NCBI GenBank assembly: GCA_020249145.1
Contig: JADCGF010000011.1
Coordinates: 75,012 to 139,011, forward strand
Reading direction: 5' to 3'
Length of the DNA: 64,000 nucleotides
Origin: Roseomonas sp.
Lineage (GTDB): Bacteria > Pseudomonadota > Alphaproteobacteria > Acetobacterales > Acetobacteraceae
How positions within the stretch are numbered: the stretch's first letter is position 1; every line of letters begins with the position of its first letter. Made by a program: the position numbers and the translations under genes. This document shows positions 19,557 to 31,722 of this stretch, one piece after another. The notes beneath the pieces were generated by a model. That model had not been told where the DNA came from. It saw only the letters and a list, made by a program, of their open reading frames with translations, and made no database searches.

Positions 19557-20897
19557 CTATTTGGCTAGAAAATTTTTTAACCTTTCCGCAGCTTTTCCGC
19601 GAGGTTGATCAAACATCCTCGACAGGGAAAACTTCCCATGATGCACGCGGGCGCGGCGGTGGGAGAATTCCAGAAAGCCGGCCAGCCCATTGCGTCGCCC
19701 GAAGCCAGAATCACCAGATCCACCAAAACCCAAAGCCTGGAAGCCCGCGAATTCCACGGTGCGCCCAGCGATGATGGCGCTGCCCTTGGCGATCCGTGCA
19801 ACCTGATTTTCTTCCTCAGACGTCGCACCAAAAAGGTAGATGGCCAGGGGTGATGGACGGTCTACAACCCAGGCGAGTGCCATCCGAAGCGAATCTTCTT
19901 CACGCATAAGTAGTATCGGGCCGAAGATTTCCTTATGGCAGATTGCCGCTTCGGGCGGGGCTTCCGCCAGCATCAGCGCCATGTGTCGCCCCGGACCGTT
20001 CTCAGCCAGCGGGGTCAGGCTGGCGCCGGCCATCAGGCGTTGAAGCCGGGCAAGCTGGGCGGCATTGATCACGGCGGTCTCAGGCAGGCCGATGCCGCTT
20101 TCGCGGCAGGCTTCGATGAAGGCCTGCTTGCTATGCCCGACCAGCAGCACGGTATCCGGCGCCACGCAGGTCTGCCCTGCATTGAAGGCCTTGCCCGCCA
20201 GAATATCGCGCGCAGCCCGCTTCAAATCCGCCCCCGGCAGCACCAGCACCGGGCATTTGCCGCCAAGTTCCAGCGTCAGCGGCGTTAGATTCGGTGCGGC
20301 GGCGGCCATGATCTTGCGCCCCGTGGCCGTGCTGCCGGTGAAGACCAGATGATTCCAGGGTTGCGCCGCGAAATCCGCACCCACTTCCGCGCCGCCTTGC
20401 ACGCAAAGCGCAATGCCATCGCCCCAGGCATCGCGCAAAACATCGGCAATCAGCGCGGCGGTGCGCGGCAGCGCTTCCGATGGTTTCACACAAACCCGGT
20501 TACCGGCAGCAATGGCATCAATCGCGGGCAGCAGCGCCAATTGCACCGGGTAATTCCAGGGCGCCATGATGCCAATCACGCCTTTGGGGACAAATTCTTC
20601 CCGCGCGCGCGCCGGCCAGAAGGGATAGGGCACGCTCACGCGGCGCGCGCGCGTCCAATGCCACAAATTGCGCCGCGCATAACGCGCCATGTCCGCGACC
20701 AGCAACACATCCGCAAGCAAGGTTTCTATCGGCGCGCGGCCTTCATATTCGGCATCCAGCACCGCCATGATCTCATGCGACCGCGCCATCACGGCGCGCG
20801 CGAGGCCCGCCAGCAGCGCGCGGCGTTGCTTCAAGTTGGGGATACCATCACGCGCTTCGGCGGCGCGCAGCGCAGCAAGGGCTTCGGCAGGGGTCAT
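19557..20897 (-). CDS. Aldehyde dehydrogenase (class 3 like); likely 4,4'-diapolycopene aldehyde dehydrogenase (AldH/CrtNc role)
   Basis: PWNYP, FTGS, LELGGK (catalytic Glu), NAGQTC (catalytic Cys), EIFGP; ATGA overlap with hpnE; role inferred from operon context. Confidence 0.85.
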   Translation of the reverse strand: MTPAEALAALRAAEARDGIPNLKQRRALLAGLARAVMARSHEIMAVLDAEYEGRAPIETLLADVLLVADMARYARRNLWHWTRARRVSVPYPFWPARAREEFVPKGVIGIMAPWNYPVQLALLPAIDAIAAGNRVCVKPSEALPRTAALIADVLRDAWGDGIALCVQGGAEVGADFAAQPWNHLVFTGSTATGRKIMAAAAPNLTPLTLELGGKCPVLVLPGADLKRAARDILAGKAFNAGQTCVAPDTVLLVGHSKQAFIEACRESGIGLPETAVINAAQLARLQRLMAGASLTPLAENGPGRHMALMLAEAPPEAAICHKEIFGPILLMREEDSLRMALAWVVDRPSPLAIYLFGATSEEENQVARIAKGSAIIAGRTVEFAGFQALGFGGSGDSGFGRRNGLAGFLEFSHRRARVHHGKFSLSRMFDQPRGKAAERLKNFLAK

Positions 20898-22120
20898 CGC
20901 GGTAAATCCTTTACCGCAGCCTCACCAGAAAGCACGGCGGCTTCAATGGTGGCGGGCAGGCGCGGCCAGGTCCAATCTCCGGCCAGGACCAGGTTGCGAT
21001 AAACCTGCCGCGGCGGTTGCGGCGGCATGCCCACCGCATGGCGCGGCGTAGCGCGGCGTTCCTTCACCGCGCGCATGGCGGGCGGCGCTTCCGGCCACTC
21101 ACCCGGTAGGCTGAAAGCCTTGGCAGCAGCACGAATTTCCGCCCAAGCACGCGGCGCAAGATCAGGCGCCTGTTCTTCCACTTCCGCATCTGCCGCGCTG
21201 ACCGTGACACTCACCCCACCTGGCCGCACCAGCACCCATTGCGTGAGGCCGCCCAACACCCCGATGAAGCGCACCGGCCCCGCCGTTTCATGCGCGAAAT
21301 GCAGATTGAGGATAGGCGCATGGCGTTCCGGCACGCGGAGTTTTGGGATCAGCCGCGCCACTTCCCAAGGCGGCAGCGCGAGCACAATGGCATCACGGGC
21401 TTCGAGCGCAAGGCTGTCATCACCAAAATGCAGCGCGATGATGCGCCCTTCCGCTTCTGTCATGGCGCGGAGCCTGGCGCCGAAACGAATAGTCGCGCCC
21501 GCCTGTTCCAAAGCGCGCAAGGCGGGCGCAATCAAATCCGGCCCCAGTCCCTCCCGCGCCACAAGCAGCGCACCTGCGCCAGGCCGCCCAAGCCGCCGCA
21601 GCACCACGCCAAGCCGCGCGGAAGAAGCCTCCTGCCCCGGTGTATTCAGTGCTGCCACGGTGAGCGGTTCGATCAGCGCACGATACAGCACGGGATGCGC
21701 CGCCATGGCTTCCGCGACAGGCCGATCCCCAATCGGCAGAGCAAGGCGCAGCAGCGCGGCGATGGCGCCCGCACTCAAGCCCGGCGGGCGTTTGTCAGGG
21801 TCGCGCCAGGCGAGTGGGCTGGCGGCGATGCGCCTCGCGCTGCCATCAGCCAAATCGAAAACCGGCAGGCCTTCCGGTTCGGCTTCCACCCAGCCCTCAC
21901 GCGCGCCGATATCCGTAAGGAAGCGCAAAGCAGCGCGGTTGGCGCCCATCAGCGCATGGGTGCCGTTATCCGTGCCATCCGGTAGCGCGCGGCAGCGCCC
22001 GCCGGCGACGGGTGTCGCTTCATGCAGCGTCACCCGGCGCCCGGATTGTGCCAGACGCAAGGCAGCCACGAGCCCCGCAACCCCGGCGCCAATGACATGA
22101 CAGGTAGCGTTCTGGCTCAC
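20894..22120 (-). CDS. hpnE: Hydroxysqualene dehydroxylase
   Basis: VIGAGVAGL, GGRCR, DNGTHALMGAN, KERRAT, LAGDWT..LPATIEAAVLSG. Confidence 0.85.
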   Translation of the reverse strand: MSQNATCHVIGAGVAGLVAALRLAQSGRRVTLHEATPVAGGRCRALPDGTDNGTHALMGANRAALRFLTDIGAREGWVEAEPEGLPVFDLADGSARRIAASPLAWRDPDKRPPGLSAGAIAALLRLALPIGDRPVAEAMAAHPVLYRALIEPLTVAALNTPGQEASSARLGVVLRRLGRPGAGALLVAREGLGPDLIAPALRALEQAGATIRFGARLRAMTEAEGRIIALHFGDDSLALEARDAIVLALPPWEVARLIPKLRVPERHAPILNLHFAHETAGPVRFIGVLGGLTQWVLVRPGGVSVTVSAADAEVEEQAPDLAPRAWAEIRAAAKAFSLPGEWPEAPPAMRAVKERRATPRHAVGMPPQPPRQVYRNLVLAGDWTWPRLPATIEAAVLSGEAAVKDLPR

Positions 22121-23778
22121 GCGCGGCTGGGGCTTGCTTGCGGCATGGGCATGACCCCCATGGCATAGGCCGCCATGCGGAGCTTTTCGCCGCGCGTCAG
22201 GCGGGGGCGTGGCCGAGGCAGGCCGAAGCCGCGCGCCATCAGGCGTTCAAACAACCGCTGATAACCCCACATCATGATACGCGCCGGCAAAAGGGCGCGT
22301 TGATCCAGATGCCGCAGTTCCGCTGCCGCTTGTGCAAAGCCTGCCTCTGCCTGCTGCGCCAAATGCGCCGCGGCGCGGGCAAATCCTGGGCTTGCAATCA
22401 GCGTTGTGGCCGGTGCGTCAGCCACACCTTCAGCGGCCAGCAGATCAAGCGGCAGATAGACGCGGTCGCGCAGTGCATCCTCATCCAGATCGCGCAGAAT
22501 ATTCACCAATTGCAGCGTGCGCCCCAAGCCAAGACCGAAATCAGCCGCTTCCGGCGCGCCAAAAATCCGCACCGCCATGGCGCCGACGCTACCTGCGACC
22601 CGGCGGCAATAAAGGTTCAGCGCTTCGGTATCAGCGATCCGCAGGCTTGGCGTGGAATCGGTTTCCATCCCCGCGATCATCGCTTCGCATTCCTGGATCG
22701 GTAGCGCGAAGTTCGCGCGCGCCAGCGCCAATTCACGCGAAAGCGCACAATCGGGCGCACGCAGCTTGCCGCGCCAATCGGCCAGGAAGCGGCGCTTTTC
22801 GGCTTCCGGCATTGCGCCATCAGCAATGTCATCCACCGCACGGCAAAAAGCATATACCGCCCAAAGCGCGCGACGCCTTTCGCCCTTCAGCGCCGACATG
22901 CCGCGCGCAAAGGAAGACCCCGCGCGCCCAACCCGCGCACTGACCAAAGCCGCGTCGCTTGGCCCGGTGCCGAGTGCAGCGCGAAAGCCATGCAGGAAAT
23001 CAAGGCGCGATAGGGCCACCCGCCCCAGAACCGGATCCGCCGCGCGCAGCCGCGCCAGCAGCCGCCGCGCGAGTGCGATGGTGACTGCGCTTTCGCGTGC
23101 CAGGCGCTTGGCCGAGAGCAACCGCGGCAAAGCAGCGGCGGCATCCAGCCTTTCCTCCACCTGATCCAGCGCAGCGTCCAGCACTGCGCGCCGCGCCTCG
23201 GTATTGGTGGGATCGAAGAAGCGCGCCTCACCCCCGGCCAAATCCATCCAGGCTTCCGGCAGATAAACGCGCCCGATATCGCGCCGATCCGGCACCAGAT
23301 CCTGCATATGGTTCAAGATTTGCAGCGCGGTACAAAGCGCATCCGCTGCTGCGATGGCCGCCGGCATCGCCTCATCATGTAAGCGCAGCAACATGCGTCC
23401 GACAGGATTGGCTGACCGTGCGCAGTAATCTTCCAAAGCCGCCCAATCGGCATACCGCGCCTGCGTTGCATCCTGCCGAAAGGCGGAGAGCATCAGCCGC
23501 GCTTCTGCCGTGCCACTGCCCGCGCGATGCAGCCCGATGGCGGCGGGTTCATCCGTGGCGGGATCATCAAGTGCTGCTTCAAGAACTGCCAAGCGCCGCA
23601 GCTTTTCATCCGGGCTCAGTGCTGGATCATCGGCGATATCATCCGCAGTGCGCACAAAGCGATAAAAGCCCAGCACCTTTGGGCGAATTTCCGGCGCCAG
23701 TAGCCGGGACGCGACAGGGAAATTCTCAGACCCCGCGTCACGTGTTGGCGCGCGGGAAGCAGCGCTTTCAGCAATCAT
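22117..23778 (-). CDS. hpnC-hpnD: Fused squalene synthase HpnC (N-terminal) and presqualene diphosphate synthase HpnD (C-terminal)
   Basis: N-half ENFPVAS...RTADDIADD...QILNHMQD; C-half GSSFARGM...AFCRAVDDIAD...QLVNILRDLDED; one 553-aa ORF. Confidence 0.88.
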   Translation of the reverse strand: MIAESAASRAPTRDAGSENFPVASRLLAPEIRPKVLGFYRFVRTADDIADDPALSPDEKLRRLAVLEAALDDPATDEPAAIGLHRAGSGTAEARLMLSAFRQDATQARYADWAALEDYCARSANPVGRMLLRLHDEAMPAAIAAADALCTALQILNHMQDLVPDRRDIGRVYLPEAWMDLAGGEARFFDPTNTEARRAVLDAALDQVEERLDAAAALPRLLSAKRLARESAVTIALARRLLARLRAADPVLGRVALSRLDFLHGFRAALGTGPSDAALVSARVGRAGSSFARGMSALKGERRRALWAVYAFCRAVDDIADGAMPEAEKRRFLADWRGKLRAPDCALSRELALARANFALPIQECEAMIAGMETDSTPSLRIADTEALNLYCRRVAGSVGAMAVRIFGAPEAADFGLGLGRTLQLVNILRDLDEDALRDRVYLPLDLLAAEGVADAPATTLIASPGFARAAAHLAQQAEAGFAQAAAELRHLDQRALLPARIMMWGYQRLFERLMARGFGLPRPRPRLTRGEKLRMAAYAMGVMPMPQASPSRA

Positions 23779-24878
23779 GCCGTGCCGCTGGCGGAATAGG
23801 CGCGGCCCTTCCAGCCGGCGGGGCGGCCAATCAACACGCGCACCAGCGCAGTCCATTGAATGGCGAGCCCAACCAATACGGCCAAGGGATGCAGCGGCAC
23901 TGTCCACCAGGCTTCACGCGTTTTGAAGGTAATGACGGCGCGCAACCCGAACACCAGCAGGATGGCAAGCGCTGCCTGCCATTCCGGCAGCAGAAAGAAG
24001 GGCCAGATATGCGCACCGGCCAGAAGCGTGGTCCAGATCGGCAGGCCCACCGGCGTCGCCATGCCTTCATGCGCATTCTTGATGAAGCCGTTCCAACTGG
24101 CGCGAAAGCCATCATACATCCGGCATTCCGCGAGGGCGACACCTTCCACCATTTCGGTACGAAAACCGGCGCCGCGCAGCTTGCGCGAAAGCTGCAAGCC
24201 ATCATGCAGCGACCCCCGGATTGCCCCATGCCCACCAAGGGTTTCGTAAGCGCCACGTTCAAACAGAATCAATTGCCCGCAAGCCGCGCCAAGCTCCGCA
24301 CGTTCAGTCTCGGCCCGTCCGCCGCCGGGCAGATAGCCGATCAGCAGCAGATTTATCATGGGCACCGTGAGTGCTTCACCCAATGAGCCAATGATCTGGC
24401 GCGGCACGCCTGTCACCATCGCCAGTTTCTGCCGCGCGGCATGGCCACACATCGCCGAAGCGGCATCACGCGCCAGGCGCACATCCGCATCTATGAACAG
24501 GAAATGCGTCCCGCGCGCCGCTTCCGCCAGCCGAGCGCAGGCGTGCACCTTACCGGTCCAGCCCTGCGGCAATGGTGGGCAAGCCAGCAGGCGCACCCGC
24601 GCATCCCGCGCGGCATAGGCGCCGACAATCGCTGCCGTGCGATCGGTTGACCCATCATCCATCACCAGCACTTCAATCGCGACACCCTGTTGCGCCAGCG
24701 CGGCATCAAGGCAGGCGCTGATGTGTGCTTCTTCGTTCCGCGCCGGTATCAGGATGGAAACCAGCGCATCCTTGGGCGCCGGCCCGCGCGCCTTGGCCAT
24801 GCGGCGCAGGTTATCAATCGCGAAACCCACAGGAAACAGCGCCAGGGCAAGCGCAATCCAGGGCAGGAATTCTGTCAT
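23775..24878 (-). CDS. GT2 glycosyltransferase (CrtQ-like carotenoid acid glycosyltransferase)
   Basis: SILIPARNEE, DDGSTD, GWTGK..AC, FIDAD, ACGQ, CRMY. Confidence 0.85.
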   Translation of the reverse strand: MTEFLPWIALALALFPVGFAIDNLRRMAKARGPAPKDALVSILIPARNEEAHISACLDAALAQQGVAIEVLVMDDGSTDRTAAIVGAYAARDARVRLLACPPLPQGWTGKVHACARLAEAARGTHFLFIDADVRLARDAASAMCGHAARQKLAMVTGVPRQIIGSLGEALTVPMINLLLIGYLPGGGRAETERAELGAACGQLILFERGAYETLGGHGAIRGSLHDGLQLSRKLRGAGFRTEMVEGVALAECRMYDGFRASWNGFIKNAHEGMATPVGLPIWTTLLAGAHIWPFFLLPEWQAALAILLVFGLRAVITFKTREAWWTVPLHPLAVLVGLAIQWTALVRVLIGRPAGWKGRAYSASGTA

Positions 24879-25693
24879 GGCGCAGTCTCCGCGCGTTGTT
24901 CATGTCGGGGGTCGAAGCGTTCGCCGCGCAGCAGCGCCTTGGCGCGGCGCCAGGCTTGATAAATGCCGCCCATGCCTTCGCGGCCCTGCACCAGGGTTTG
25001 AAAGGCGGCAGGATCACGCGCAATGGCATCCGTGCTGAGCTTTTCCATCACGCCCGCCAAAGCGTCAGACAGCATTGCGCTGCGGGCTTCACGCGGCGCT
25101 GCCAGCAGCGTCGCAGCCGGGATCGGCGCGCCGAAAGCAGCCAGCATTTCCGCCTTGCGCTCACTCCAGAAGGGATAATCCAGCGCAAGCGGCACAAACA
25201 CCGCATCAGGCGCGATTTCCGGCAGGCGGATCATGCCGGGCGCAATCGGCACGGGCCTTTCGCGCGCGTCGCTGAATCGCCCCGGCGCATTGATCCAGAG
25301 GATATGCGCAGGATTCGCCAAAACCTTTTCCACCACACGCAAAAACGCCACGGAACCGCGCGCCGATCCGGTTTCAATGCCAAATACGCCAAGTCGCTTC
25401 ATGAAGCGATATTTTTCGAGCGCCGCCGCATCCATCGGCGTGAACAAAGGCCGCTGCGGCAAAAGCCGGCGATAGAGCAGCATGAACGCCACGCCATCCC
25501 ACCAGGACGGATGATTGGCGAAAATCACCACGGGCTTGCCTGCCGGCAATTCAGGCAGGCCCCAGCGCGTCACGCGCAGCGCGCGCATATGCTTGGCGAA
25601 GAAACGCGTGAACATGAAATCGAAAAAATCCAGATGGCGCGCAGAACGCAGCGCCACCGGGTCAGGCACTTGTTTTGCCTGGCCTGTCGTCAT
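24875..25693 (-). CDS. Lysophospholipid acyltransferase (PlsC-like) family protein; probable glycosyl-carotenoid acyltransferase
   Basis: FANHPSWWDG (HxxxxD), WINAPG, PLALDYPFW. Confidence 0.8.
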   Translation of the reverse strand: MTTGQAKQVPDPVALRSARHLDFFDFMFTRFFAKHMRALRVTRWGLPELPAGKPVVIFANHPSWWDGVAFMLLYRRLLPQRPLFTPMDAAALEKYRFMKRLGVFGIETGSARGSVAFLRVVEKVLANPAHILWINAPGRFSDARERPVPIAPGMIRLPEIAPDAVFVPLALDYPFWSERKAEMLAAFGAPIPAATLLAAPREARSAMLSDALAGVMEKLSTDAIARDPAAFQTLVQGREGMGGIYQAWRRAKALLRGERFDPRHEQRAETAP

Positions 25694-27276
25694 TCCGCCG
25701 CGGCTGGCAGATCGGCCTCTCGCCGGCCGGCCAATTCAGCTTCGGGCGACATGCCGCGCCCGCCAAGATCACGGTCCAAAGCATCGGCCGCGATCCAGCC
25801 GGACATCATCACCATGGGCATGCCAGGGCCGGGATGCGCCGCACCGCCGGCCAGATAAAGCCCCTTGATCGCCTTGCTGCGATTGCTCGGCTTGAAGGCG
25901 CCGGTGAAGGAACCATGCGATGCCAGGCCATAAATCGCGCCATTCAACACCTTGTAGCGGTTATGGATATCCACCGGCGTCAATTGGCTTTCGCAGACAA
26001 TGCGGCTTTCGATGTCTTCCATCCCCGCAGTGCGCTTCAGCTTATCCAGGATTTTCTGGCGATAGGCCGGGAACATTTTCGACCAATCATGATGCGGGCG
26101 CAGATAGGGCGTGTGTACCAGCACATAAAGCGCTTCCCCACCTTCCGGCGCGACCGAAGGATCAGTGCACGATGGCGCGGCGAGATACGCAGTCGGGTCC
26201 GGCGCCGGTTCGCCCTTGCGATAGATGGCATCGAATTCTTCTTCCGCATCGCGGGAGAAGACGAAATCATGATGCGCCAAATGTTCGTAACGGCGATTGA
26301 GCCCGAGATAGAGCACAATACCGGAACAGGCGGGTTCATACTTCTTGGCGTAGCGCTGAGACGCATTGCCCTTCACCAATTCCGTATAGGTGCGGATCGC
26401 ATCCATGTTCGAAATCAGCGCATCGCAGGCAATGCGTTCGCCATTGGTCGTGACACTGCGCACCGCACCATTCACGATTTCAATATCCGTCACTTCGGCA
26501 TTGGTACGCAAATCAGCGCCCAGCGACGCGGCAAGATTGGCAAGCCCTTCCGCCGTGGCGCGCGTGCCACCTACGGGGTACCAGACACCTTCGGATGCCT
26601 GCATATCGCCAATGCTGCACAGCACCGCCGGCGCCAGATAGGGGCTCGATCCGACATATTGCGTGAAGTGATCCAGCATCTGCGCCAATTGCTCATTCGG
26701 CACATGGCCGCGAATCACCTTCGCCACCGTCTGGCCCATGCGCAGCGCCATCACATCGCGAAGCACATCAGGCTTGAAGTTGTCGCCAAGATTCAGCGTA
26801 TCGCCGATGCCTTCCACGGGCTTCCAGAAGAAGAATTTCTCGGAAACCTTGTGCAAATGGCGGGCCACGCGCTGGAATCGTTCATACCCCGCGCCATTCG
26901 GCCCGCCGGGAGCGAATTCATCCATCAGCCGTGCCATATCCTGCACGTTTTCGATCAGATCAATCTGCTTGCTGCCATCAAAAAAGCAGCGCCATTGCGG
27001 ATCAAGCCGGATCAGCGGCATTTCCTTTTGCTGATCGCGCCCCGCTTCGGCGAAGATGCGGCGCAGCACGCGCGGCACGGTCAGGATGGTGGGGCCCATA
27101 TCGAAGCGGAAATTCCCGCGCCCATCCGGCGATGGCATGCTCAGCACCGCCGCCTTGCCGCCCAGCCAGGAATTACGCTCAAGGACCGTGACCTGATGCC
27201 CACGCGCCTGCGCGGTGGCGGCGGCTGCAAGCCCACCCAAACCGCTGCCGATGACAACTACCTTGGCACCCATCAC
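25690..27276 (-). CDS. crtP: Phytoene desaturase family protein; probable diapolycopene oxygenase (CrtP/CrtNb)
   Basis: GSGLGGL, FDMGPTILT, GVWYPVGG, YGLASHG, GGAAHPGPGMPMVMMSG; second CrtI-family paralog in the operon. Confidence 0.75.
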   Translation of the reverse strand: MMGAKVVVIGSGLGGLAAAATAQARGHQVTVLERNSWLGGKAAVLSMPSPDGRGNFRFDMGPTILTVPRVLRRIFAEAGRDQQKEMPLIRLDPQWRCFFDGSKQIDLIENVQDMARLMDEFAPGGPNGAGYERFQRVARHLHKVSEKFFFWKPVEGIGDTLNLGDNFKPDVLRDVMALRMGQTVAKVIRGHVPNEQLAQMLDHFTQYVGSSPYLAPAVLCSIGDMQASEGVWYPVGGTRATAEGLANLAASLGADLRTNAEVTDIEIVNGAVRSVTTNGERIACDALISNMDAIRTYTELVKGNASQRYAKKYEPACSGIVLYLGLNRRYEHLAHHDFVFSRDAEEEFDAIYRKGEPAPDPTAYLAAPSCTDPSVAPEGGEALYVLVHTPYLRPHHDWSKMFPAYRQKILDKLKRTAGMEDIESRIVCESQLTPVDIHNRYKVLNGAIYGLASHGSFTGAFKPSNRSKAIKGLYLAGGAAHPGPGMPMVMMSGWIAADALDRDLGGRGMSPEAELAGRREADLPAAAE

Positions 27277-27288
27277 GCCGTCTCCTTC

Positions 27289-28860
27289 TCACTCACCAGC
27301 TACAGGCGCGCTGGCCCGCATGTGGCGTGGACTGCGCTCACTGCGCGCCATACCCAAATCCTGCAATAACAAATCGGTGCTGATGCGCGCACCTTCGTAA
27401 ATCACCGGTAGCCCACTGCCCGGATGCGTGCCGCCGCCCACCAGATACACGCCCCGCGCCTTACCGAAGCGATTGCGCGGGCGGAAATGCATCATCTGGC
27501 GCACATTATGCGCAAGATTGAAGGTCGCCCCATAGCCAACCGCATATTCATCTTGCCAGCCTTGGGGCGAGAGGATTTTCTCGTACCGAATGCGGCTTTC
27601 GATATCATGCAGGCCCAGCGCTTTCAGCCTATCCAAAGCAAGTCGCCGATAGCGCGGCGCTTCTGCCGCCCAATCAGCGCCGCCCAGCAAATTCGGCACC
27701 GGCACCAACATATAAAGCGTGGAATGCCCAGGCGGGGCCAGAGACGGATCAGTCCCTGCCGCCGCTTGCACATAAAGCGATGGATTTTGCGGAATAATGC
27801 CGGATTCGATTTGTGCGAGATTATTCTCGTAATCTTCGGCCAGCAGAACCGAGTGATGCGCCAGATCAAGTGGCCCTTCAATGCCAAGATAAAGCATGAA
27901 GGTGGAACAGGAATATCGCGCCTCGGCGATTTTCTTATCTGGCCATTGCGGGCGCTGTTCTTCTTCCATCAGCCCCGGAATGGCGTGCGCGAAATCGGCA
28001 TTCACCACCACCGCATCCGCGGCATGAAGCCGCCCGCCCGCTTCAACACCAACGGCGCGCCGGCCTTCAAAGACAATGCGATCAACCTTGGTGTTCAGGC
28101 GGATATCCACGCCCACACTCTCGGCCACCCGGGCCATGGCTTCCGATATCACGCCGCACCCGCCGCGCGGGTGAAACACGCCATGTTCATATTCCAGGAA
28201 GGACAGGATGGAGAACATGCTCGGGCAACGAAACGGACTCATGCCCAGGTATTTGGACTGGAAGGAAAACGCCAAGCGCGTGCGCGGATCGGAGAAGTGT
28301 CTTTGCAATTCCTGATCCAGCGAAAGCCAGGGCCGCAGATGCTTGAGCCCATTCATCACTTCCGGCGCCAGATAAGTCATCACGCCATGAAAGGGCCGTT
28401 CCAACACGGGGCGGAAGGCTTCCAGCTTCACGCGGTTTTCCGCCATGAAGCTGCGTACCCCCGCGGCATCGGCTGGGTTGATCTTCGCCACTTCCGCTTC
28501 CATGCGCGCCAGATCGGGCGTCGCTTCAATGGAAACAGGATTGGCGCCTTCAAAAATCAGCCGATACTGCGGATCAAGGCGGATCAAATCCACCTCATCC
28601 TCAAGCCGTGCGCCGCAGGCTTCGAAGATTTCCGCCAGGATGCGCGGATACAGGAAGAAGGTCGGCCCAATATCAAAGCGGTAGCCGCCAGGCGCCGTTA
28701 CGGTGCGGGTGCGCCCGCCTACCACGGCATCCTTTTCGAATACCGTGACGCGCACGCCTGAGGAGGCCAGCAGCATGGCCGCGGCCAAGCCTCCGGGGCC
28801 GGCGCCGATTACGGCGACATGGGGGCGAGTTTGTGAGAGCGAGGGAGGTGATGCGTTCAT
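27289..28860 (-). CDS. crtN: Phytoene desaturase family protein; probable 4,4'-diapophytoene desaturase (CrtN)
   Basis: GAGPGGL, FDIGPTFF, SFQSKYLGMSP, GGGTHPGSGLPVI. Confidence 0.8.
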   Translation of the reverse strand: MNASPPSLSQTRPHVAVIGAGPGGLAAAMLLASSGVRVTVFEKDAVVGGRTRTVTAPGGYRFDIGPTFFLYPRILAEIFEACGARLEDEVDLIRLDPQYRLIFEGANPVSIEATPDLARMEAEVAKINPADAAGVRSFMAENRVKLEAFRPVLERPFHGVMTYLAPEVMNGLKHLRPWLSLDQELQRHFSDPRTRLAFSFQSKYLGMSPFRCPSMFSILSFLEYEHGVFHPRGGCGVISEAMARVAESVGVDIRLNTKVDRIVFEGRRAVGVEAGGRLHAADAVVVNADFAHAIPGLMEEEQRPQWPDKKIAEARYSCSTFMLYLGIEGPLDLAHHSVLLAEDYENNLAQIESGIIPQNPSLYVQAAAGTDPSLAPPGHSTLYMLVPVPNLLGGADWAAEAPRYRRLALDRLKALGLHDIESRIRYEKILSPQGWQDEYAVGYGATFNLAHNVRQMMHFRPRNRFGKARGVYLVGGGTHPGSGLPVIYEGARISTDLLLQDLGMARSERSPRHMRASAPVAGE

Positions 28861-28945: not shown

Positions 28946-30565
28946 TCAGGCTGCCATGGCCCCCTCGATTTCCGCGAAGCGCGCCCCAGCGCGCGGAAGA
29001 AGCCTGCGCAGATAGAAATCCGCCACCGCCCCATAAGCCGCGCCATCCGCCGCAGCCGCCCGCGCGAGAAGAGCACCCCCCAGCACCCAGCCCACCGCAT
29101 CCAAATAGGCAGTCGCGAGCGATTGGCTAGCCTCCGCATCGCGGCCTTGCACTTCCAACACCGCCTCCGTGGTCCGGGCCAGCCCCTCAGCCGCGGCGCG
29201 CAGCCTGGCATCGGGCAGGGCGGCGATCTCGCTGATGAGGCTCCGCATCTCCGCCCCGCCATCGCGGGCGAGCTTGCGGGTCAGCAGGTCAATGGCCTGG
29301 ATGCCGTTAGTGCCCTCATAAATCGGGGCAATGCGGGCATCGCGCAGCACCTGGGCGGCGCCGGTATCCTCAATAAAGCCCATGCCGCCATGCACCTGCA
29401 CGCCGAGGGACGCGGTTTCCACCCCGCGATCCGTGGCCCAAGCCTTCAGCACCGGGATCAGCAGCGCCAACCGCGTGCTGGCCGCTTTATCGCCCAAAAG
29501 CTCCGCCCTGTCGGCTGCCACTGCCGCTTCCAGCATGATCAGCCGGGCGGCGAGCGTGGTCGCGCGCATTTCCATCAGCATGCGCGCGACATCTGGGTGT
29601 TCCGCGATGCTGCGCCCGCTCTGCACACGCTGCGCGGCATAGGCTTCGGCCAGACGCAGCGCCGCCGCGCCATGCGCCACACCCTGGGTGCCCACGCCAA
29701 GCCTGGCATTGTTCATCATGGCGAACATGGCTTGCAGGCCGCGATGCGGTTCGCCGACCATCTCGGCCTCCGCCCCTTCATACAGCATGATGCAGGTGGG
29801 GCTGCCATGAATGCCCATCTTGCGTTCGATGCCACCGCAGCGGAAGGCATTGCGCGCGCCATCGGGTAGGATTTTCGGCGCGGCGAATAGCGAAATCCCG
29901 CGCGAGCCCGGCGGCGCATCCGGCAGGCGCGCCAGCACCAGATGCAGGATATTGCCGGCGCAATCATGTTCGCCCCAGGTGATGAAAATCTTCTGCCCGT
30001 GCAAGGCATAGCGCCCATTGCCCAGCGGTTCCGCGCGCGTGCGCAGCATGCCCAAATCGCTGCCGGCTTGCGGTTCGGTCAGGCACATCGCGCCGGTCCA
30101 TTCGCCGGCGATCATCGGCGGCAGCCAGCGCGCCGCCTGATCCGGCGTGGCGTGATGCCGCAGCAGATCAATCGCACCCGCCGTCAGCAGCGGGCCGAGC
30201 ATGAAAGACGTATCCGCAGCCATGCCCAATTCCACCATGGCAGTCCAAAGGCTGAGCGGCAGCCCCTGCCCGCCATGTTCCGCCGGTGCGGCCAGTCCCT
30301 GCCAGCCGCCTTCACGCCATTGATCATAAAGCGCTGGGTAATGCGCCGGCGTGGTCACCGTGCCATTGGCGTAGCGGGCACCCTGCTTATCGGCCTCCTG
30401 CGCCTTCGGTTGCAGGGCTTCGGTGCAGAAACGGTTCGCCTCGGTCACGATTTGGGCGATGTCATCGGCGGAAAGCGGCGCGCCGGCGGCATTGGTCAGG
30501 CCCGGCAGGTCAACCAGGCGCGTGAGGCCGAAAATCAGATCATCAGCGGCGGTGGTGTTGCTCAT
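28946..30565 (-). CDS. Acyl-CoA dehydrogenase
   Basis: MCLTEPQAGSD, GQKIFITWG, KMGIHGSPT, MMNNARL, VHGGMG, IYEGTNGIQ. Confidence 0.92.
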   Translation of the reverse strand: MSNTTAADDLIFGLTRLVDLPGLTNAAGAPLSADDIAQIVTEANRFCTEALQPKAQEADKQGARYANGTVTTPAHYPALYDQWREGGWQGLAAPAEHGGQGLPLSLWTAMVELGMAADTSFMLGPLLTAGAIDLLRHHATPDQAARWLPPMIAGEWTGAMCLTEPQAGSDLGMLRTRAEPLGNGRYALHGQKIFITWGEHDCAGNILHLVLARLPDAPPGSRGISLFAAPKILPDGARNAFRCGGIERKMGIHGSPTCIMLYEGAEAEMVGEPHRGLQAMFAMMNNARLGVGTQGVAHGAAALRLAEAYAAQRVQSGRSIAEHPDVARMLMEMRATTLAARLIMLEAAVAADRAELLGDKAASTRLALLIPVLKAWATDRGVETASLGVQVHGGMGFIEDTGAAQVLRDARIAPIYEGTNGIQAIDLLTRKLARDGGAEMRSLISEIAALPDARLRAAAEGLARTTEAVLEVQGRDAEASQSLATAYLDAVGWVLGGALLARAAAADGAAYGAVADFYLRRLLPRAGARFAEIEGAMAA

Positions 30566-31722
30566 GTTGTGATCTCCAATCCGGCCAGCAGGCCAGGTGC
30601 CGGGGCATCACGCCCGGCGGCCCAGCCCGGTAGTGCGCGGGCGAGCGCAGTATCCTCCGCCGCCGCGGCCAGGGCCAGACCTAAAAGCGGGGCGAATTTG
30701 AAGCCATGGCCGGAAAAGCCGGACATGACAAAGCAGGCGGGGGCGGCGGCTTCCAGGATGAATTCCTCCCGGTCTTCCACATCGTAATAGCAGGCCTGGG
30801 CGCCCAGCACGCGATAGCCAGCCGCACCGATCAGGCGCGGGCGGGCGAGGGCCAGGATTTCCTCGATTTCTGCGGGCGTTGCCGCGCGCGGATCCGCCCC
30901 GGCATCGCCCTGGCGGGAAAAGCGGTGATCGCCAATCTTGAGCGCGGTGCCGGCCACTGGCGGTACGGCGTAGAACCCGCCATCCTCGGCCAGATCAAGC
31001 AGCATGGGTGCGGCTTCCCAAGCGGCACGGAAGGCCGGCGGGGCTTCAAGACGCACCAGGATTTGCCGGGACGGCACCACGCGGCCAGTAAGCCGGGTGC
31101 CGAGCAGCCTTGGCCCCCAGGGTCCGGCGGCCAGTACCAGCAGATCAGCGCTGCGTTCCACGCCATTGGTGAGCCACAGCGCCGCACGATCCGGCAGGGC
31201 GGCGGCAACCTCGGCGGCCTCGAACACCACGCCTTGTGTGGCGAGATGCGCGGCGAGCCCGGCGACGATGCGTTCCGCGAGCAGCGCGCCACCGCGCGGC
31301 AAGGTGAAGGCCGCGGCTATGCCGGTATCTGACAGCATGGGAAAGCGCGTGGTGATCTGATCCGGCGACAGGTCAGCACATGCATGCCCATCGGCCCGCA
31401 ATGCAGCACGGCTTTCCGCAAGCCAGCCACCCTGGTGATTGGCGAGTGCCAGCACGCCGGTTTCCACATAATGCCGGGTGCCGAGTGCGGCCCAGATCAT
31501 GTCCCAAGCCGCATAGGCAGGGTCAACCATCCGCATATAGCCAGCCTGCGCGCCATAGGCGTGGCGGATCAGCCGGTGCTGATCCACCGAAGCGCCGCGC
31601 GGATTGGGGATGGGTGCCTGTTCAATCACGCGCACCTGCCAGCCGGCGCGGGCCAGCGCCCAGGCGGTGCAAAGCCCCATGATGCCGGCGCCGAGAATCA
31701 GGGCGTTTCGTTGTGCTGCCAT
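30562..31722 (-). CDS. FAD-dependent oxidoreductase (monomeric sarcosine oxidase-like)
   Basis: GAGIMG, RLIRHAYG, ACYY (covalent-FAD Cys position), GFSGHGFKFAP. Confidence 0.85.
   Translation of the reverse strand: MAAQRNALILGAGIMGLCTAWALARAGWQVRVIEQAPIPNPRGASVDQHRLIRHAYGAQAGYMRMVDPAYAAWDMIWAALGTRHYVETGVLALANHQGGWLAESRAALRADGHACADLSPDQITTRFPMLSDTGIAAAFTLPRGGALLAERIVAGLAAHLATQGVVFEAAEVAAALPDRAALWLTNGVERSADLLVLAAGPWGPRLLGTRLTGRVVPSRQILVRLEAPPAFRAAWEAAPMLLDLAEDGGFYAVPPVAGTALKIGDHRFSRQGDAGADPRAATPAEIEEILALARPRLIGAAGYRVLGAQACYYDVEDREEFILEAAAPACFVMSGFSGHGFKFAPLLGLALAAAAEDTALARALPGWAAGRDAPAPGLLAGLEITT

Follow-up and report, generated by a model that had tools for sequence, protein, structure and literature searches.

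In Zymomonas mobilis and Rhodopseudomonas palustris, squalene is made by a three-enzyme route that consists of HpnD, HpnC and HpnE (reviewed in PMC7839719), with HpnC and HpnD as two separate polypeptides. Fused hpnCD genes were reported in 2017 by Sinninghe Damsté et al. in Acidobacteria subdivision 2, some Actinobacteria and Rhodospirillum centenum (PMC5462960); these genes are roughly double the size of a separate hpnC or hpnD gene, encode HpnC N-terminally and HpnD C-terminally, are followed by hpnE and belong to hopanoid clusters. The same route also leads to C30 carotenoids. In Planctopirus limnophila, hpnCDE together with crtN, crtP, aldH, crtQ as well as crtO give rise to C30 carotenoids via squalene, and hpnC plus hpnD without hpnE yield no pigment (PMC9907078); in Methylobacterium extorquens, the squalene-route C30 pathway has been shown genetically (PMC10448405); and in Azospirillum brasilense, deletion of either hpnCDE or crtNPOQ abolishes the pigment, with squalene accumulating in the crtNPOQ deletion (PMC13274349). 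The location of hpnCDE beside crtN in some alphaproteobacterial orders has been noted earlier in this literature (PMC9907078, PMC10448405, PMC13274349). Here we examine a fused hpnCD gene in a 64,000-nucleotide (nt) stretch of DNA from Roseomonas sp. (contig JADCGF010000011.1, positions 75,012 to 139,011; hereafter, the window). We favor the interpretation, at a probability of about 0.8, that this gene encodes a genuine, selectively maintained bifunctional enzyme that supplies a squalene-route C30 carotenoid operon.

The Roseomonas gene shares its size, domain order and downstream hpnE with the fusions described in 2017 but differs from them in representing a separate lineage and in being part of an operon of the carotenoid type, the genome as a whole lacking squalene-hopene cyclase. 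Its two halves match the Zymomonas and Rhodopseudomonas proteins at the equivalog level, with the same motif sets and an adjoining hpnE, but are joined in one chain. The set of enzyme families in the operon is that of the squalene-route C30 pathway, and the N-P-O-Q order of its genes agrees with the name given to the crtNPOQ cluster of Azospirillum; however, all the genes stand here in a single operon that contains a fused hpnCD, whereas the squalene genes of Methylobacterium and Azospirillum are found at a separate locus. Sqs and CrtM share with this protein the fold and the first half-reaction, from two farnesyl diphosphate (FPP) molecules to presqualene diphosphate (presqualene-PP), but perform both half-reactions in one active site, whereas one step per paralogous domain is predicted here. 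The initial annotation, which was made from the letters of the window, contrasted the fusion with the separate proteins of Zymomonas and Rhodopseudomonas. The single chain is real, but its novelty was overstated: fused hpnCD was published in 2017 and is frequent, so that the architecture is already known. The gene does not represent a new enzyme class. What is notable is the context: a probable carotenoid operon of the squalene route, complete in itself, in a genome without a cyclase. The two main papers on hpnCDE evolution do not mention the fusion, and our literature search retrieved no match for Roseomonas together with a C30 carotenoid.

Positions given below are those of the window unless another contig is named, and the gene lies on the minus strand. 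It is a single stop-free open reading frame (ORF) of 553 amino acids (aa), counted from the ATG at 23778; an alternative GTG start upstream would give 596 aa but would run into the preceding gene. The parts of the gene, with the domain limits set by the envelopes of hidden Markov models (HMMs), are as follows.

22117–23778 (minus strand): hpnCD fusion ORF, 553 aa; passes the equivalog cut-offs of both HpnC and HpnD; AlphaFold2 model with a mean local confidence (pLDDT) of 94 and a predicted template modelling score (pTM) of 0.92
22975–23739 (minus strand): HpnC-type domain, residues 14–268, the predicted hydroxysqualene synthase half; TIGR03464, Asp-rich motifs D46-D50 and Q159/D160-D164
22930–22974 (minus strand): inter-domain junction, residues ~269–283, between the two HMM envelopes
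22168–22929 (minus strand): HpnD-type domain, residues 284–537, the predicted presqualene diphosphate synthase half; TIGR03465, motifs D316-D320 and N426/R429/D430-D434

That one ORF carries an HpnC-type and an HpnD-type half, as originally proposed, is borne out by the NCBIfam models, each half exceeding its own equivalog cut-off: TIGR03464 scores 328.7 bits (cut-off 250.45) over model positions 3–265 of 267, and TIGR03465 scores 309.4 bits (cut-off 278.6) over positions 3–262 of 267. The Pfam family SQS_PSY is found twice in the protein. The model of the single-chain Sqs, TIGR01559, reaches 41.3 bits, below its cut-off of 286.75, and the CrtB models reach 108–120 bits, below cut-offs of 480–550. 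All the motifs named in the initial annotation are present where it had placed them, namely ENFPVAS (residues 18–24), ADDIADD (45–51) and NHMQD (156–160) in the HpnC half, and GSSF (287–290), VDDIAD (315–320) and NILRDLDED (426–434) in the HpnD half. Across 49 aligned fused homologues, down to 28% identity, D46, D50, Q159, D160 and D164 of the HpnC half are invariant and D47 nearly so, as are D316, D320, N426, R429, D430 and D434 of the HpnD half without exception. The architecture, its conservation and the integrity of the motifs can be observed directly, and the chemistry of each half is assigned by analogy with the enzymes of Zymomonas and Rhodopseudomonas. Because both catalytic motif sets are intact, conversion of FPP to presqualene-PP and on to hydroxysqualene is the best prediction.

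AlphaFold2, run with this alignment of 49 fused homologues as the input, yields two complete all-helical isoprenoid-synthase folds (pLDDT 94.0). The N-terminal half matches PDB entry 4HD1, 'squalene synthase HpnC', with an E-value of 1.7e-19 (phmmer), and the best PDB matches of the C-terminal half, by both sequence and fold, are CrtM-like and phytoene/dehydrosqualene synthases. The initial annotation joined the two halves by a short linker, FRAALGTGPSDAAL (residues 265–278, nt 22945–22986). A connection of about 11–15 residues indeed joins them, but it does not appear to be loose: residues 270–283 are modelled with a pLDDT of 87–92, in part as helix, and the tail of HpnC passes straight into the N-terminus of HpnD. 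The length of this junction, measured between the envelopes, is nearly constant in the window's clade, at 11–15 aa, whereas other fused lineages have 16–42 aa at this point; the junction is also conserved in sequence (GPSDAALV..RAGSSF). The pTM of 0.92 suggests a fixed mutual orientation of the two domains in the model.

A fusion of this kind could in principle be an artefact, that is, an ordinary hpnC and an ordinary hpnD that were run together when a base was missed or a stop miscalled near 22930–22990. The concern is not idle because the split genes of this family overlap by a 4-nt ATGA, so that an error of one base would join them, and because three relatives have garbled, frameshift-like junction regions. 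Against this, a homologue search over 5.8 billion proteins produced more than 1000 matches, and the best 120, which come from NCBI, JGI, ENA and Logan, are almost all 527–575 aa long, with 95–100% query coverage and 65–95% identity. Uninterrupted homologues of 545–555 aa are found at 64–95% identity, one cluster at 95% identity alone holding 731 member sequences, and the named full-length homologues include those of Roseomonas, Roseicella, Belnapia, Crenalkalicoccus, Dankookia, Paracraurococcus, Siccirubricoccus and Caldovatus. The same open frame recurs in over 100 homologues among those listed, which are 527–575 aa long and come from independent sources. Both domains share one open frame at all 14 clade loci that we fetched (2 genomes of the same genus and 12 of other genera), and the junction is short, conserved in sequence and confidently modelled. 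Given the full-length homologues and the 14 concordant loci, a hidden stop or frameshift at the junction, which had been named as a possible refutation, can be excluded on comparative grounds; the chance that the fusion is an artefact is negligible, and the fusion stands. The three relatives with garbled or fragmented middles (L022, L023 and L024, from genomes G017, G012 and G139) look like fusions at low identity but were set aside, since frameshifts or assembly errors are probable there. In these, the hpnC/hpnD regions are hopanoid-linked and adjoin an intact shc, the squalene-hopene cyclase gene; a frameshift, an assembly error or gene decay probably accounts for their appearance.

The hpnCD gene is the fifth in a run of seven genes on the minus strand, of which the other six are, in the order of transcription, the following.

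27289–28860 (minus strand): CrtI-family desaturase 1, CrtN-like by position, the probable first gene of the operon; TIGR02734, 508 bits
25690–27276 (minus strand): CrtI-family amine-oxidase-type desaturase 2, CrtP-like by position; TIGR02734, 395 bits; conserved synteny
24875–25693 (minus strand): acyltransferase, CrtO-like by position; Pfam Acyltransferase PF01553; conserved synteny
23775–24878 (minus strand): family 2 glycosyltransferase (GT2), CrtQ-like by position; Pfam Glycos_transf_2
20894–22120 (minus strand): hpnE-like FAD oxidoreductase, predicted to convert hydroxysqualene to squalene; TIGR03467 (HpnE) is the best family
19557–20897 (minus strand): aldehyde dehydrogenase, AldH-like; Pfam Aldedh

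Five successive 4-nt start/stop overlaps tie these genes together from the crtP-like gene through aldH. In particular, the stop of the GT2 gene overlaps the ATG of hpnCD at 23778 (ATGA), the stop of hpnCD overlaps the GTG of hpnE (GTGA), and the stop of hpnE overlaps the start of the aldehyde dehydrogenase gene (ATGA). The operon order is kept in 12 of 14 related loci, and the order crtP-crtO-crtQ-hpnCD-hpnE also occurs in three Microvirga loci, in a different order of Alphaproteobacteria. The GT2 gene directly precedes hpnCD in 12 of the 14 clade loci and in Microvirga; hpnE follows hpnCD in all related loci examined except four (L048, L066, L094 and L100); and an aldehyde dehydrogenase gene is located downstream of hpnE, not always adjacent to it, in 11 of the 14. 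All the enzyme families of the squalene-route C30 carotenoid pathway are present in one operon, with CrtN and CrtP assigned by position. This operon context is directly observed, and the C30 specificity of the desaturases is predicted from it. A homologue search with the first CrtI-family gene did not settle the choice between CrtN and CrtI, returning generic 'phytoene desaturase' names.

Upstream, an 85-nt gap with a terminator-like hairpin separates the crtN-like gene from the gene of an acyl-CoA dehydrogenase (ACAD). The region directly upstream of the operon (28946–31722, minus strand) contains this ACAD-family gene and a DAO-family FAD oxidase, the best match of which is N-methyltryptophan oxidase-like; ACAD is kept at the upstream position in 11 of the 14 related loci and DAO in 7. 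Base composition changes along the operon, with a G+C fraction of 0.575–0.62 in the two CrtI-family genes (25500–28500) versus 0.65–0.68 in hpnCD and hpnE (20000–23000), a contrast that may hint at a mosaic origin of the cluster.

The likely fate of the squalene can be gauged from the rest of the genome, which is 99.9% complete. No match to TIGR01507 or PF13243, the squalene-hopene cyclase models, was found in this genome, two congeners likewise lack a hopene cyclase, and no other HpnC, HpnD or Sqs was found in the window's genome. Elsewhere in it (contig C50, ~227–242 kb; loci L001, L125 and L128) there is a second carotenoid gene set, of the C40 type: a geranylgeranyl diphosphate (GGPP) synthase-like gene adjoins a candidate CrtB-type phytoene synthase gene at ~241–242 kb, and a CrtI gene (611 bits) lies beside a CrtD-like gene at 227–230 kb. 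This crtE-crtB and crtI-crtD set probably covers C40 carotenoids, so that the organism would make both C40 and C30 pigments. Because there is no cyclase and no other HpnC, HpnD or Sqs, and because the C40 set is separate and on another contig, squalene in this organism most likely feeds C30 carotenoids rather than hopanoids. A fourth SQS_PSY protein, of 277 aa, is encoded on contig C2 (locus L004, 1426–2259, minus strand) next to a gene that resembles superoxide dismutase genes in sequence; its N-terminal part lacks the canonical DxxxD context, and we take the protein to resemble the NDUFAF6-like alphaproteobacterial family rather than a triterpene synthase.

Three other accounts of the function have to be weighed against this reading. 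Enzymes with a duplicated fold often keep one dead domain, and one half of the fusion might accordingly be a degenerate structural or regulatory element, leaving no complete hydroxysqualene synthase; we regard this as quite improbable, given that both halves score above strict equivalog cut-offs, that the metal-binding Asp motif residues of both are invariant in 49 sequences down to 28% identity, and that the genome holds no other HpnC or HpnD for the missing step. A slightly better but still poor prospect is a different C30 product, such as dehydrosqualene (4,4'-diapophytoene) made directly as by CrtM, with desaturases that do not depend on squalene and some other role for HpnE. The placement of the gene in a carotenoid operon, the CrtM-like nearest solved structures of the C-terminal half and the score of HpnE below its cut-off would all fit such a product; however, the HpnD model scores 309 bits as opposed to 108–120 bits for the CrtB models, an hpnE-like gene is translationally coupled to hpnCD and accompanies it in all but four related loci, and the Planctopirus experiment without hpnE gave no pigment (PMC9907078). 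It is also improbable, to about the same degree as a dead domain, that squalene serves mainly a non-carotenoid sink (hopanoids, free membrane squalene or another triterpenoid) and that the operon neighbors are coincidental. Although relatives with an unlinked hopene cyclase and two loci lacking carotenoid neighbors could be read in this way, neither the window's genome nor its two congeners have a cyclase, the five successive overlaps bind hpnCD to carotenoid-type genes, and another order of Alphaproteobacteria shares the arrangement of the genes.

Several observations nevertheless weigh against a bifunctional enzyme dedicated to a C30 carotenoid operon. The hpnE-like gene scores 241 bits with TIGR03467, under the cut-off of 283. 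The source databases name the CrtI-family genes only 'phytoene desaturase', and the homologues of the first of them are named likewise. Two clade loci (L011 and L014) contain hpnCD-hpnE with no carotenoid-gene matches in the 19.5-kb stretch fetched, and 15 of the 23 genomes of the fused clade have an unlinked hopene cyclase with the fused gene as their sole hpnC/hpnD, indicating that the fusion itself has no obligatory link to carotenoids. Finally, the literature searched yielded no enzymatic, genetic or pigment study of this protein or of any natural hpnCD fusion. In the 15 genomes with an unlinked cyclase, one fused gene probably feeds both pathways, whereas in split-gene relatives shc is located 1–3 kb from hpnD. 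The genomes that have the fused gene but no squalene-hopene cyclase (G000, which is that of the window, G005, G147, G036, G123, G006, G148 and G135) suggest repeated loss of hopanoid synthesis with squalene synthesis retained. That the fusion tracks the loss of the cyclase is ruled out, since 15 of the 23 genomes keep shc.

How widespread the fusion is had been posed as a question by the initial annotation, and the answer is that it is frequent. In a survey of 151 genomes from 143 genera of the window's family, about 24 genomes, in about 24 of the sampled genera, gave one contiguous full-length match, at 64–76% identity, about 105 gave two adjacent separate matches, and 11 gave no match. Of all the 97 loci examined, 32 have hpnC and hpnD fused in a single frame. 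When 1.84 billion cluster representatives were scanned in full with HMMER, 9561 relatives emerged; among the best 150 clusters (at 50% identity), about 70 are fused proteins of full length, with 500–620 aa and 30–62% identity, and their named members include Geminicoccus, Inquilinus limosus and Niveispirillum. Scanning a single genome for each species brought in Sediminicoccus, Rubritepida, Pseudoroseomonas, three Microvirga and Acetobacter sacchari. Some members bear the JGI label 'squalene synthase HpnD/squalene synthase HpnC', whereas the NCBI label for these fused proteins is merely 'squalene/phytoene synthase family protein'. Among metagenomic gene calls there are also apparent further fusions by boundary loss within this gene neighborhood: P0123 (946 aa, 59% identical to the window's fusion) comprises GT2, HpnC and HpnD, P0188 (724 aa) comprises NUDIX, HpnC and HpnD, and the other three proteins of this group (P0208, P0250 and P0261; 675–690 aa) comprise GT2 and HpnC.

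The trees of the C half and the D half are congruent. In both, the window's gene falls within a clade of 19 Roseomonas-group sequences, with an approximate likelihood ratio (SH-aLRT) support of 97–98; this clade joins Microvirga (SH-aLRT 94–96) and next one more fused sequence, from an alphaproteobacterial metagenome-assembled genome. The ordinary hopanoid-linked genes of the family form a separate clade (SH-aLRT 95–99), which includes three further independent fusions. A single origin of all fusions is ruled out because the starred branches of the trees force at least six changes between the fused and split states. Such changes are cheap. The 20 split loci of Acetobacteraceae that were examined have hpnC and hpnD overlapping mostly by ATGA or GTGA, and in many other lineages the two genes are in the same frame with exactly one stop between them (20 TGA, 9 TAA and 5 TAG, in a sample that is biased because tblastn favors same-frame pairs and that is phylogenetically clumped). 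Because the split genes abut in either of these ways, one small mutation suffices to fuse them. The same-frame pairs (loci L053–L104, for example L056, L062–L064 and L085–L091) come from Xanthobacteraceae, Betaproteobacteria and others, and have an ATG a few codons after the stop; an occasional read-through fusion protein in such 'split' species is a possibility.

The high pTM and the ordered junction of near-constant length raise the question of whether the two domains might work as a unit. Conceivably, they form a rigid pseudo-heterodimer with communicating active sites, in which the labile, amphipathic presqualene-PP would be handed over unreleased, and the split HpnC and HpnD would assemble into the same complex non-covalently; we consider this model-based proposal tentative and rather doubtful. 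If split HpnC and HpnD normally formed that complex, this would account for the finding that their genes almost always show translational coupling or have just one in-frame stop between them, and for the fixation of covalent fusion at least six times. Any kinetic benefit of the fusion is a matter of conjecture: it could lie in channelling of the intermediate or in a mere 1:1 stoichiometry. A precedent for a benefit in flux reportedly comes from Niehaus et al. in 2011, in whose work Botryococcus SSL-1 was fused by engineering to SSL-3 or SSL-2 and product yield is said to have increased. Those constructs would likewise join a presqualene-PP synthase to a paralogue that converts presqualene-PP but are artificial and eukaryotic, and their relevance is confined to this point.

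Taken together, these results favor the following scheme for the Roseomonas operon. Under this scheme, the C-terminal HpnD-type domain would condense two FPP to presqualene-PP, the N-terminal HpnC-type domain would convert presqualene-PP to hydroxysqualene, and the translationally coupled HpnE would reduce hydroxysqualene to squalene, which the products of the other operon genes would desaturate, oxidize, glycosylate and acylate to a C30 carotenoid acid glycoside ester. The fusion of this lineage would have arisen once, in the common ancestor of the cluster formed by the Roseomonas group and Microvirga, when the boundary that separated two adjoining and translationally coupled genes was lost, with similar events repeated in other lineages. 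The domains follow the usual hpnC-hpnD gene order rather than the order of the reactions, as expected if the boundary between the genes was read through.

The overall importance of the finding is modest, and it concerns several aspects of hpn genes. The database label 'squalene/phytoene synthase family protein' can be corrected to fused HpnC-HpnD. As a natural, compact, predicted FPP-to-hydroxysqualene enzyme with a short, ordered junction, the protein would be a reasonable part for squalene engineering, as well as a good subject for asking whether presqualene-PP is channelled between HpnD and HpnC. The fused gene is the sole gene of the hpnC/hpnD type in Microvirga and in a large group of Acetobacteraceae with pink pigment. 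In the genus of the window, it most likely works in carotenoid rather than hopanoid synthesis, a point that matters for the use of hpn genes as markers of hopanoids in metagenomes.

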